From the NCBI RefSeq assembly GCF_046105845.1, contig NZ_CP151004.1: DNA of 64,000 nt. One strand, given 5' to 3'. Source of the stretch: Escherichia coli. GTDB lineage: Bacteria > Pseudomonadota > Gammaproteobacteria > Enterobacterales > Enterobacteriaceae. Below are positions 8,313-62,444 of the stretch, in pieces (within the stretch, counting starts at the first letter, position 1; every line of letters starts with the position of its first letter). The notes under the pieces are model-generated. The model did no database searches. It had not been told where the DNA came from and saw only the letters and a program-made list of their open reading frames with translations. The position numbers were made by a program, and so were the translations under genes.

Positions 8313-8399
8313 AAAAAATAAGCCCGTGTAAGGGAGATTACACAGGCTAAGGAGGTGGTTCCTGGTACAGCTAGCATTTTATGGGTTATGTTTTTCAGC
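8313..8399 (-). ncRNA. cyaR: CyaR (RyeE) Hfq-dependent small RNA
   Basis: Minus-strand sequence GCTGAAAAACATAACCCATAAAATGCTAGCTGTACCAGGAACCACCTCCTTAGCCTGTGTAATCTCCCTTACACGGGCTTATTTTTT matches my recollection of CyaR, including the terminator hairpin (CCCTTACACGGGC) plus U-tract; located downstream of yegQ as in K-12. Confidence 0.85.
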
Positions 8400-8433
8400 G
8401 AAACGGATGATAACCTTAATAAATGCAGCTGTA

Positions 8434-20100: not shown

Positions 20101-20240
20101 GGCAGCGCCGAAACGGGCAGGGCACGATAACCGATAATCCCGGCGAGTAAGATCGCCACCATCAGCAGCGTGGTGGCGACAGGACGCATAATAAACAGGC
20201 GCGATGGGCCGCCTGTGATGCTCGGGGGTAACACCTGCAT
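17118..20240 (-). CDS. mdtB: RND multidrug efflux pump subunit MdtB
   Basis: 1040-aa RND-family ORF immediately upstream of mdtC. Confidence 0.93.
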
Positions 20241-21487
20241 CAGGAGCGTGCTCCTTTTTTCGCGTATTCGCGGCTGGTGGCTTTCTCTTCCGGAGTGGTG
20301 GCGCTCTGGGCTTCCACTACTTCCACTTTCGCCCCTTCGGTCAGGCGATCAATGCCGTCTGTCACTACGCGGTCGCCCGCAGAAATACCTGCGCGGATCA
20401 CTACTTTCTGACTGTCCTGAATGCCCGGCGTCACCAGATGTTTGCTGACCTTGTTTTCGCTATTCAGCACCCAGACAAAATGGCCTTCGTTGCCCATTTG
20501 CAGAGCGGCGGTGGGGATCACCACGGCGTTTTGTTCGGTGTCGACTAACATACGCGCGTTAACAAACTGATTGGGAAACAGCGCATCATCCTGATTATTA
20601 AAGCGTGCTTTCACTTTAATCGTACCGGTAGTGGCATCGATTTGGTTATCGAGGCTTAACAGCGTGCCTTCACTTAATTTCTTCGAGTTGGTGCGATCCC
20701 AGGCTTCTACCACCAGCGGTTTTCCGGTTTTTTGCGCCTGTACTACGGTAGCGATATCGCTTTCCGGCAGGGTAAAGAGCAAATCGATAGGATGCGTCTG
20801 GGTGATCACCACAATCCCGGTGGTATCACCACTGGAGATTTGGTTACCAACATCAACCTGCTTGAGACCAACGCGACCATCGACTGGCGCGGTGATGCGG
20901 CTCCAGTCGAGTTGCAGCTGTGCGCTGGCGACGCTTGCTTCATCAGCCTTAATGGTGCCTTCGGTTTCACTGACCAGCGCCTGTTGGGCATCCAGTTCCT
21001 GACGAGATACGAGATTGGTTTTTACCAGTTGTTGATAACGCGCCAGGTCACGGCGGGCGTTGGCAAGCGTGGCTTTATCTTTTGCCAGTTGGCCCTGGGC
21101 TTGTGCTAATGCAACTTTGAACTGGCTTGGGTCAATTTCTGCCAGTAAATCGCCTGCTTTGACCTGCTGGCCTTCCTGGAAATGTAACGCCATCAGTTGA
21201 CCGTCCACGCGGCTGCGCACCGTAACGGTATTAGCGGCGGTAATGGTGCCAAGCCCGGTGAGATAACGTGGCACAGCTTGTTCTACGGCAGTCGCCGCCT
21301 GAACCGGGGCTAATGGACCGGAACGCATACCACGGCGACCACCCGCTGGCGATTGCTGCGCTTGTTTCGTCGCCCCTGGGGCTGCACTCTGGGAGTCATT
21401 GCGGCCTTGCCAGAACCAGAATGCGGCGATGGCGGCGATAACCACCACGATTACGATTACCCAACGGGATTTATAACTGCCTTTCAT
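20240..21487 (-). CDS. mdtA: RND efflux membrane fusion (periplasmic adaptor) protein MdtA
   Basis: ORF track extends to 21634, but the likely start is the ATG at 21487 ([16 protein letters not shown]..., 415 aa) with a signal/TM segment; the stop overlaps the mdtB start. Confidence 0.88.
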
Positions 21488-21558: not shown

Positions 21559-21719
21559 TGGAGGAATTATGAAACACTGTCGGGAATCGTCTGAATGACG
21601 GGCACATTTGCGAGCACGCATCCAGTAATAACACATGAAACTATTTTATCTACGCGTTAGCGATAGACTACGTGCATGGCGAAAGGAGGTAAGCCGATGA
21701 TTTCAGCGGGACGCTGAAA

Positions 21720-21859
21720 CGGGAAAGCCCCTCCCGAGGAAGGGGCCATAAATAAGGAAAGGGTCATGATGAAGCTACTCATCATCGTGGTGCTCTTAGT
21801 CATTAGCTGGCCAGCTTACTAAGACTACCAGGGCGGGGGAAACCCCGCTCTACCCTCAC
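21720..21859 (-). ncRNA. Sib-family antisense sRNA (antitoxin) copy 1, approximate boundaries
   Basis: Minus-strand promoter: -35 TTGACA (rc of 21888-21893), 17-bp spacer, -10 TACTTT (rc of 21865-21870). Minus-strand terminator hairpin (rc of 21727-21746) plus U-rich tract. Fully overlaps the ibs ORF in antisense. Confidence 0.6.
21766..21822 (+). CDS. Ibs-family type I toxin peptide, copy 1 (MMKLLIIVVLLVISWPAY)
   Basis: 18-codon ORF with strong SD (aaggaaaggg) 6 nt upstream; hydrophobic single-TM peptide characteristic of Ibs toxins. The ibsA/ibsB/extra-copy assignment is uncertain. Confidence 0.8.
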   Translation: MMKLLIIVVLLVISWPAY

Positions 21860-22047
21860 TCCTGAAAGTATGCCTTCACGATAAGATTGTCAATCTGCAG
21901 GCTTTGCAGTCTGCGATCCTGCCAGCAAATATTCTTTGCGAGACGTTACGCAATAATCACACTGGAAACTATTTTATCCGCAAGTCAGCGATAGACTGCA
22001 TTCAGGGCGAAAGGAGGTAAGCCGACGATTTCAGCGGGACGCTGAAA

Positions 22048-22187
22048 CGGGAAAGCCCCTCCCGAGGAAGGGGCCTTAAATAAGGAAAGGGTCATGATGA
22101 AGATACTCATCATCGTGGTGCTCTTAGTGATTAGCTACCCAGCATACTAAGACTACCAGGGCGGGGGAAACCCCGCTCTACCCTCAC
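22048..22187 (-). ncRNA. Sib-family antisense sRNA (antitoxin) copy 2, approximate boundaries
   Basis: Same promoter (TTGACA-17-TAATTT) and terminator architecture as copy 1, shifted by one repeat unit. Confidence 0.55.
22094..22150 (+). CDS. Ibs-family type I toxin peptide, copy 2 (MMKILIIVVLLVISYPAY)
   Basis: Same architecture as copy 1 in the second repeat unit. Confidence 0.8.
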   Translation: MMKILIIVVLLVISYPAY

Positions 22188-22376
22188 TCCTGAAATTATG
22201 CCTTCACGATAAGATTGTCAATCCGCAGGCTTTGCAGTCTGCGATCCTGCCAGCAAATATTCTTTGCGAGTCGTTACGCAATAATCACAGAGGAAACTAT
22301 TTTATTCACGCGTTAGCGATAGACTGCATTCAGGGCGAAAGGAGGTAAGCCGACGATTTCAGCGGGACGCTGAAAC

Positions 22377-22520
22377 GGGAAACCCTCTCCCGGAGAAGAG
22401 GGCTTTTAATAAGGAAAGGGTTATGATGAAGCACGTCATCATACTGGTGATACTCTTAGTGATTAGCTTCCAGGCTTACTAAGAACACCAGGGGGAGGGG
22501 GAAACCTCTCCCTAACCCTC
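22377..22520 (-). ncRNA. Sib-family antisense sRNA (antitoxin) copy 3, approximate boundaries
   Basis: Minus-strand TTGACA (rc of 22551-22556), 17-bp spacer, TAATTT; terminator-like hairpin near 22385-22405. Confidence 0.55.
22423..22482 (+). CDS. Ibs-family type I toxin peptide, copy 3 (MMKHVIILVILLVISFQAY)
   Basis: 19-codon ORF in the third repeat unit with SD aaggaaaggg. Confidence 0.8.
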   Translation: MMKHVIILVILLVISFQAY

Positions 22521-22702
22521 ACTCCTGAAATTATGTCACTCCGCCCTTAGTGTCAATCGACGGCTCTCCGTTCTTGCGAGGCGAATAGCAAAATTTTCTG
22601 CGCCGCCGGGCCTAATTCTGAAAGTTTCTTCGTTTGCTCTTATTTCATTATTGCAATCGGTATGATACCGGACCTCGATAATTCTCTAAGAAAGGATTTC
22701 TT

Positions 22703-23362
22703 ATGAGCGAACAAATCACGTTTGCCACCAGCGATTTTGCCAGTAACCCGGAACCACGTTGCCCCTGCATTTTGCTGTTGGATGTTTCTGGTTCGATGAG
22801 TGGTAGACCTATTAATGAACTTAACGCCGGATTGGTTACCTTTCGCGATGAACTGCTTGCCGATTCGCTGGCCTTAAAAAGAGTGGAACTCGGCATTGTG
22901 ACGTTCGGCCCGGTGCATGTGGAACAACCCTTTACCAGCGCCGCTAATTTTTTCCCGCCCATCCTGTTTGCCCAGGGCGATACACCAATGGGCGCTGCCA
23001 TTACCAAAGCCCTGGATATGGTTGAGGAGCGCAAACGTGAGTATCGTGCAAATGGTATTTCCTATTATCGCCCGTGGATTTTCCTGATCACCGATGGCGC
23101 TCCAACCGATGAGTGGCAGGCTGCCGCCAACAAAGTGTTTCAGGGGGAAGAAGATAAGAAGTTTGCCTTCTTTACCATTGGTGTACAGGGGGCGGATATG
23201 AAGACGCTGGCACAAATCAGCGTTCGTCAGCCTTTGCCACTGCAGGGATTACAATTCCGTGAACTGTTTAGCTGGTTATCCAGTTCGCTGCGTTCGGTTT
23301 CCCGCTCCACGCCGGGAACGGAAGTTGTGCTGGAAGCGCCAAAAGGCTGGACGTCAGTGTGA
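22703..23362 (+). CDS. yegL: von Willebrand factor A (vWA) domain protein with MIDAS motif
   Basis: 219-aa ORF; MIDAS DxSxS motif visible ([11 protein letters not shown]); stop overlaps the yegK start. Confidence 0.88.
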
Positions 23363-38327: not shown

Positions 38328-38366
38328 CAGTGTATTGGTAGCTAAAAAGCCAGGGGCGGTAGCGTG
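38328..38366 (+). promoter_or_regulatory. JUMPStart element with ops site (GGCGGTAGCGTG at 38355-38366) in the wza 5' leader; RfaH recruitment site
   Basis: Seen in sequence: cagtgtattggtagctaaaaagccaggggcggtagcgtg. The ops core matches GGCGGTAGnnTG exactly, and the 3' end of the element is shared with the rfb JUMPStart at 62406-62444. Confidence 0.8.
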
Positions 38367-52705: not shown

Positions 52706-52806
52706 CAGTTGCATAATCAACCGGATTAATTCTTCGGTAAATAACGACAAAAACAAAATTGGCCGCTTCGGTCAGGGCCAACTATTGCCTGAAAAAGGGT
52801 AACGAT

Positions 52807-62405: not shown

Positions 62406-62444
62406 CAGTGCTCTGGTAGCTGTAAAGCCAGGGGCGGTAGCGTG
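62406..62444 (+). promoter_or_regulatory. JUMPStart element with ops site (GGCGGTAGCGTG at 62433-62444) in the rfb operon leader
   Basis: Seen in sequence: cagtgctctggtagctgtaaagccaggggcggtagcgtg; matches the JUMPStart consensus as I recall it, and the ops core is exact. Confidence 0.85.

Follow-up and report, generated by a model that had tools for sequence, protein, structure and literature searches.

Three tandem sib/ibs cassettes lie between mdtA and yegL in this Escherichia coli genome. Positions given here are those of the window, i.e. the entire 64,000-nt stretch of DNA that was analysed. The array consists of three head-to-tail units of ~328 bp and occupies 21607-22600 of the intergenic region. 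It is flanked by mdtA (20240-21487, minus strand), which lies outside the array and whose start was assigned by homology to the annotated mdtA genes of strains 042 and K-12, and by yegL (22703-23362, plus strand), a 219-aa ORF that encodes a vWA-domain protein and is annotated as yegL in both 042 and K-12.

Anatomy of the three units

A direct-repeat search of the locus yielded start-to-start spacings of 328 and 328-335 bp. Tandem Repeats Finder reported one array at 21626-22535 with a period of 328, 2.8 copies, 90% matches and a score of 1436. Unit 1 (21607-21934, 328 bp) adjoins mdtA and is of the sibB/ibsB type; it is supported by the direct repeats, the 328-bp period and alignment to K-12. 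When 15 units from six strains were aligned, the mdtA-proximal unit always contained a characteristic upstream segment. Unit 2 (21935-22262, 328 bp), characterised by alignment to unit 1 and to K-12, is a cassette that K-12 is without. Unit 3 (22263-22600, ~335 bp), identified by alignment to K-12 sibA/ibsA, carries sibA/ibsA and adjoins yegL. Unit 2 was ~91% identical to unit 1, i.e. ~9% diverged, and 76% identical to unit 3, and the identity of unit 3 to units 1 and 2 was 73-76%. An earlier sequence-only reading of this DNA had described three near-identical units of ~328 bp. The number of units stands, as does the length of units 1 and 2, but unit 3 is longer and far from identical to the other two. 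With ~330-bp units in tandem, the same flanking genes as the K-12 array and 97-99% identity to K-12, the array belongs to the SIB/QUAD tandem repeats.

Every unit contains an intact ibs ORF on the plus strand preceded by the Shine-Dalgarno-like sequence GGAAAGGG. The ORF of ibs gene 1 (21766-21822) encodes the 18-aa peptide MMKLLIIVVLLVISWPAY, which is identical to the product of the 042 CDS WP_100249772.1, and that of ibs gene 2 (22094-22150) encodes the 18-aa peptide MMKILIIVVLLVISYPAY, identical to the product of the 042 CDS WP_012767742.1; both 042 products are annotated as Ibs family toxins. The third ORF is ibsA (22423-22482), and its 19-aa product, MMKHVIILVILLVISFQAY, is identical to IbsA of K-12 and 042 (WP_010723109.1). 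All three ORFs are nested inside, and antisense to, the spans of the Sib RNAs described below, and their highly hydrophobic products qualify as Ibs type I toxin peptides. The peptides had been said to differ at a few residues, with W, Y or F at position 15 and a P to Q change in copy 3. This description was incomplete: the F of copy 3 is residue 16 of 19, this peptide is one residue longer than those of copies 1 and 2 and departs from them at many positions, and copies 1 and 2 differ at residue 4 (L versus I) as well. Reading of the conserved upstream segment of the units gave no convincing -35/-10 pair for an ibs promoter. Han et al. (2010, PMC2943612) mapped ibs transcription start sites for two genes only, ibsC and ibsD.

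The Rfam SIB_RNA model (RF00113; gathering score 56) matched the minus strand once per unit, each time over its full length (1-147) and with E-values of 1e-30 to 1e-32, which makes chance an implausible cause. The corresponding RNAs are Sib1, which is SibB-type (~137 nt, 21721-21857; 140.2 bits, match at 21751-21893), Sib2, which is antisense to ibs gene 2 (~137 nt, 22049-22185; 142.2 bits, match at 22079-22221), and SibA (~144 nt, 22377-22520; 149.5 bits, match at 22408-22556). The ends of these RNAs were placed by homology to SibC, whose coordinates follow from the Northern-probe oligonucleotides of Han et al. (2010, PMC2943612), an error of 1-2 nt being possible for Sib1. Each Sib RNA covers the entire ibs ORF, its ribosome-binding site and ~45 nt upstream. 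The Sib genes had previously been described as convergent and antisense to ibs; the antisense orientation is correct, but rather than converging on ibs, each Sib overlaps the whole ORF and the ribosome-binding site as a true cis-antisense RNA. The identification of the locus as Ibs/Sib type I loci between mdtA and yegL was upheld by the Rfam matches, by the Ibs peptides identical to RefSeq entries and by the orthologous position in K-12.

A promoter for each Sib RNA was located on the minus strand by sequence reading and from the Rfam matches. The Sib1 promoter (21865-21893, Rfam model positions 1-29) consists of TTGACA at 21893-21888, a 17-nt spacer and TACTTT at 21870-21865. The promoters of Sib2 (22193-22221) and SibA (22528-22556) both consist of TTGACA, a 17-nt spacer and TAATTT. 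These elements are exactly those that had been proposed.

The three Sib RNAs had folding free energies between -58.5 and -59.6 kcal/mol (z from -3.8 to -4.9), and 0 of 200 shuffled sequences folded as well. The values were -59.0 kcal/mol and z = -3.82 for Sib1, which forms a terminator hairpin, and -59.6 kcal/mol and z = -4.53 for Sib2, which has an 11-bp terminator stem; for SibA z was -4.91. In the predicted architecture, a P1 stem closes the structure, three hairpins lie inside it, and a G+C-rich terminator stem of 9-11 bp is followed by UUUCCCGUUUC. At the sequence level, each unit has its own promoter and terminator for a Sib RNA of ~140 nt, the predicted lengths being 137, 137 and 144 nt. 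The sense strands of the three units also folded alike, with two 5' hairpins, an unpaired ribosome-binding-site segment, a start-codon hairpin and 3' hairpins. These folds agree with the ibsC mRNA model of Han et al. (PMC2943612), in which the target of recognition domain TRD2 lies in J2/3.

We considered whether at least one unit is a relic in decay, its promoter or terminator being broken or its peptide non-functional, such that fewer than three pairs would be functional. A generic consensus scan flagged no Sib promoter and no Sib terminator on the array, as would be the case for a relic, and regulation of IbsA is reported to be dispensable in K-12, where SibA-deficient cells are viable (PMC2943612). 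The promoters escaped the scan because their -10 boxes, TAATTT or TACTTT, match TATAAT at only three of six positions, and the terminators escaped it because their U-tract is interrupted (UUUCCCGUUUC). The sole terminator-like match of the scan lies on the plus strand at 22383-22402 and corresponds to the SibA terminator read from the opposite strand. The promoter and terminator elements of the array are identical or almost identical to those of the experimentally characterised SibA and SibB of K-12. Moreover, a perfect TTGACA, a 17-nt spacer, a full-length Rfam match, a Sib-like fold, a 9-11 bp terminator stem and an intact ORF behind GGAAAGGG were found in 3 of 3 units, and all three units are conserved across strains. 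As promoters, folds, terminators and ORFs are intact throughout, we rejected the relic explanation, which we regard as very unlikely. The specific concern that folding would reveal a defective promoter or terminator in the extra unit was likewise not borne out, as all three units were intact on both sequence reading and folding.

Copy number and cassette order in E. coli

The alignment to the K-12 units that the sequence-only reading had proposed resolved the identity of each cassette. Unit 3 corresponds to K-12 sibA/ibsA (99.4% identity); the IbsA peptide is identical and the SibA RNA differs from K-12 SibA by 1 nt. Unit 1 corresponds to K-12 sibB/ibsB (97% identity). Four differences separate Sib1 from K-12 SibB, all within the region equivalent to recognition domain TRD1, and compared with K-12 IbsB (MMKLLIIVVLLVISFPAY) the copy 1 peptide has W instead of F at residue 15. 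Unit 2 is distinct. It was 92% identical to the K-12 sibB unit, and this middle cassette is absent from K-12. The earlier statement that K-12 has two copies at this locus was correct: MG1655 contains an ibsB-type gene and ibsA.

The closest genome at the locus is that of E. coli 042 (NC_017626.1; 99.4-99.5% identity), which encodes peptides identical to all three, in unchanged order. The 042 array differs from that of the window by a few bases, and the -10 box of its Sib2 promoter is TACTTT rather than the TAATTT found here. The O157:H7 array likewise comprises three units, the last of which carries ibsA, but the order and content of the cassettes are different (IL/Y, WI/F, A). In 042, O157:H7 and others, RefSeq annotation covers all three Ibs genes.

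A query with the locus found 5,422 matching records, which cover 5,419 of the 5,426 complete E. coli genomes in RefSeq. Sixty of these records, taken at even spacing and classified by match span, included ~27 arrays with three units, 23 with two, 5 with four and 4 with one. A second, independent sample of 40 records included 19 arrays with three units, 17 with two and 2 with four. Identity of at least 95% to the whole three-unit query was observed for 53 + 2,344, or ~2,397, of the 5,422 records (44%); among the matches listed, three-unit arrays had 95.0-99.5% identity and two-unit arrays had at most 94.5%, so that this band is close to a count of the three-unit arrays. Three units is thus the plurality state, at about 44-47% of matching records, followed by two units at about 40% and one or four units at a few percent each, these frequencies being estimates based on the two evenly spaced samples and on the identity band, in a database biased towards clinical lineages. 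Examples of three-unit strains are O157:H7, O104:H4, O145 and 042. Two-unit strains include K-12, O55:H7, and LF82 and other B2-type strains that are without ibsA altogether.

These frequencies bear directly on the proposal that the strain carries an extra copy. The proposal had been qualified by the possibility that three copies might prove to be the norm at this locus, and three units was indeed the most frequent state in our samples. With ~44-47% of matching records in the three-unit class, and with 042 and O157:H7 already annotated accordingly, the third unit is no oddity. Because K-12 is a reference of the minority type at this locus, the apparent extra copy is not a peculiarity of this strain. 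The three-copy array is already known and annotated in public genomes, and no other copy number is as common in E. coli.

The third unit could still be a genuine extra copy that arose by a recent strain-specific duplication, given that tandem repeats duplicate easily and that K-12 and many other strains have two units only. At ~91% identity to unit 1 and 76% to unit 3, however, unit 2 is far too diverged for this explanation. Its exact peptide allele (WP_012767742.1) recurs in 042, in unit 1 of O157:H7 and in unit 3 of DG341-1. On the basis of this divergence, the presence of the allele in other strains and the population frequency of three-unit arrays, we rejected a recent duplication of unit 2, the probability of which we judge to be very small. 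Its ~9% divergence from unit 1 argues that unit 2 is instead a separate, long-established cassette type rather than a fresh duplicate. Tandem repeats can also mis-assemble, and the triplication could in principle be a mis-resolved repeat. Since the units are readily distinguished from each other (9% and ~25% divergence) and the same arrangement of three units recurs co-linearly in thousands of independent complete genomes, an assembly artefact was rejected as well; we consider its probability negligible.

The cassettes also vary in arrangement. Among the 15 aligned units of the six strains, the cassette cores were A, LL/F (K-12 IbsB), LL/W, IL/Y, LL/Y and WI/F, and these stood in different orders in different strains. 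In the one-unit strain WCHEC035123, the upstream segment characteristic of the mdtA-proximal, unit-1-type cassette is fused directly to an ibsA core, as expected if the first and last units had undergone unequal crossing-over. Arrays of four units, such as that of DG341-1, would be products of the reciprocal type. The differing cassette orders and the hybrid units suggest unequal crossing-over, in which homologous recombination between ~328-bp units would alter both cassette order and copy number (1-4). Individual E. coli or Shigella strains have been reported to contain 4-7 Ibs genes (S. flexneri, 4; EDL933, 6; Sakai, S. boydii, S. sonnei and also E. fergusonii, 7 each), from which Fozo et al. 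(2010, PMC2887945) concluded that type I loci evolve by lineage-specific duplication. Taken together, we consider it highly probable that the array is a three-cassette allele of a polymorphic sib/ibs tandem array in which each cassette is a type I toxin-antitoxin pair and copy number varies by unequal recombination.

Predicted repression and cross-talk between cassettes

In K-12, Ibs peptides are toxic without the cognate Sib RNA, and the cognate Sib represses this toxicity. Two domains of each K-12 Sib mediate pairing with the cognate ibs mRNA: TRD1 recognises the ORF and TRD2 the translation initiation region. One of the two is enough for repression, and pairing results in degradation of the ibs mRNA (PMC2943612, and Fozo et al. 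2008 as cited there). IbsA of Salmonella is reported to inhibit the FoF1 ATP synthase (2025 preprint). We infer that expression, toxicity and repression in the array would follow the K-12 pattern. The plus strand would give rise to ibs mRNAs encoding hydrophobic inner-membrane toxins of 18-19 aa, and the minus strand to Sib RNAs of ~137-144 nt, each from its own promoter with a strong -35 element. Each Sib, perfectly complementary to the entire ibs ORF and its ribosome-binding site, would nucleate pairing via two recognition domains by analogy with the K-12 pairs, with TRD1 pairing to the 3' half of the ORF and TRD2 to the translation initiation region. Translation would then be blocked and the ibs mRNA degraded, such that the toxin would normally not be made.

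The two sibB-type RNAs of the array are closely similar. Only six of 137 nt distinguish Sib1 from Sib2 (+42, +48, +49, +57, +83 and +110). The TRD1-equivalent region (+42 to +64) contains four of these mismatches, and a fifth, at +83, is in the P6 loop. The TRD2-equivalent region (+92 to +108) is identical in the two RNAs and lies inside a 26-nt identical run (+84 to +109); the other perfect runs are 41, 25 and 27 nt long. SibA differs extensively from Sib1 and Sib2, with a longest common run of 14-16 nt.

Han et al. (2010, PMC2943612) found that a contiguous TRD2 helix of 25 bp redirected SibC to ibsD. Given this result and the identity of TRD2 in Sib1 and Sib2, we predict, with slightly better than an even chance of being correct, that Sib1 and Sib2 cross-repress ibs1 and ibs2. 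As TRD2 requires additional structural context (Han et al., PMC2943612), the P6-loop difference at +83 could matter and cross-repression may fail. SibA shares no more than 14-16 contiguous nt with Sib1 or Sib2, and it should therefore be orthogonal to them, with no productive pairing to ibs1 or ibs2 predicted.

The alternative is that the three pairs are strictly orthogonal, each Sib repressing its own ibs mRNA only, in which case the array would comprise three independent switches rather than a partly redundant pool. This arrangement would be in line with K-12, where the Sib RNAs discriminate between cognate and other targets, ibsA excepted (PMC2943612). It would also fit the location of the differences between Sib1 and Sib2, four of six being in the TRD1-equivalent region and one in the P6 loop, regions that are specificity-determining or accessory according to Han et al. 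Against it stand the TRD2-equivalent region, identical within its 26-nt perfect run, the further runs of 41, 25 and 27 nt, and the finding of Han et al. (PMC2943612) that a match in one TRD alone represses. We assign strict orthogonality somewhat less than an even chance.

Among the aligned units, the TRD2/ribosome-binding-site region of the sibB-type cassettes was invariant, and variation was confined to TRD1 and codons 4-5. More tentatively, sibB-type cassettes in general may form a mutually cross-repressing set served by a shared antitoxin pool, a possibility that we regard as rather unlikely. If it were true, such a pool would let the cell survive gain, loss and reshuffling of cassettes by unequal crossing-over, and it would explain both the polymorphism of 1-4 copies and the hypervariable C-terminal residue of the toxin (W, Y or F). 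The array would then be a freely evolving toxin library and not a set of independent switches.

Comparison with other tandem type I arrays

Beyond its correct annotation, the three-copy state of the array is of little consequence, as it is a textbook type I toxin-antitoxin array. Cross-regulation of near-identical neighbouring cassettes with identical TRD2 sequences bears on how tandem toxin-antitoxin arrays could expand and contract safely. The array of the window shares its mdtA-yegL position, unit length and architecture with the SIB/QUAD repeats of K-12 (Fozo et al. 2008; Han et al. 2010), and K-12 is unrepresentative of the species at this locus. The ldr/rdl system (LDR repeats) and the zorO-orzO/zorP-orzP system are similar in that small hydrophobic toxins paired with antisense RNA antitoxins are arranged in tandem within one intergenic region and vary in copy number among strains (PMC2887945), although the sequences of both systems are unrelated to sib/ibs.

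Copy number of the sib/ibs array

The number of tandem sib/ibs units between mdtA and yegL differed among the strains compared. The single unit of strain WCHEC035123 (NZ_CP058651.1; locus 402-730) is a hybrid in which an ibsA core is fused to the mdtA-proximal upstream segment, and strain DG341-1 (NZ_CM144243.1) carries an array of four units. The occurrence of a one-unit hybrid and a four-unit array, as judged from their sequences, is consistent with reciprocal unequal crossing-over inside the array. O55:H7 is a close relative of O157:H7. The O55:H7 strain TB182A contains two units, whereas both O157:H7 records among the matches listed contain three. Given this relationship, the unit count between mdtA and yegL may have shifted within a short span of evolutionary time.

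Elements upstream of ibs and mdtA

Sequence comparison identified a Shine-Dalgarno-like box upstream of ibs in all three units; in unit 1 it is accompanied by a mini-ORF (21682-21717), and units 2 and 3 have the corresponding segment. The box, AAGGAGGT, is a strong Shine-Dalgarno-like sequence located ~75 nt 5' of the ibs start, and a cross-strain alignment of sib/ibs units from six strains showed that it was retained in 14 of 15 units. In the K-12 sibA unit, as in unit 1, an ATG situated 7 nt past AAGGAGGT opens a 6-codon mini-ORF, which in unit 1 reads ATG ATT TCA GCG GGA CGC TGA (21697-21717). In units 2 and 3 this ATG is replaced by ACG. Because the mini-ORF is polymorphic at the sequence level, it is probably not functional.

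Each unit also contains an 8-bp hairpin, TTTCAGCG-GGA-CGCTGAAA (21702-21720, 22030-22048 and 22358-22376), which is perfectly conserved and lies directly downstream of the Sib terminator on the − strand. This placement puts the hairpin near the presumed 5' end of the ibs mRNA, which is encoded on the + strand. The hairpin could form stem P1 of that mRNA; alternatively, it could serve as a back-up terminator for Sib.

A consensus scan of the spacer returned a sole promoter-like match, TTCAGA and CATAAT separated by 18 nt, at 21566-21595 on the − strand. This predicted site, which may be the promoter of mdtA, is ~80-110 nt 5' of the annotated start of that gene. Annotated homologues place the mdtA start at 21487, whereas the mechanical ORF list has the gene reach further 5', to a GTG at 21634.

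Genomic surroundings and other RNA elements

No match exceeding 98.1% identity to the 24 kb from 10000 to 34000 was found among complete RefSeq E. coli genomes, whereas the sib/ibs locus alone was 99.4-99.5% identical to strain 042, its closest genome. Gene order in this segment is standard (mdtABCD, yegI, dgcE and others). The sequence comparison suggests a mosaic or an under-sampled lineage; there may be a link with the region around the colanic-acid and O-antigen clusters, which is prone to recombination.

Rfam searches identified two JUMPstart elements (RF01707) on the + strand at 38328-38366 and 62406-62444, scoring 57 and 60 bits, as well as an algC RNA motif (RF02929, 77 bits) on the same strand at 52753-52802. 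These elements presumably mark a phosphomannomutase leader and the points where the colanic-acid and O-antigen gene clusters begin. The CyaR/RyeE sRNA gene (RF00112, 100.7 bits) was found on the − strand at 8316-8401. It lies beyond the mdt operon, a location that seems to be in line with the K-12 map.
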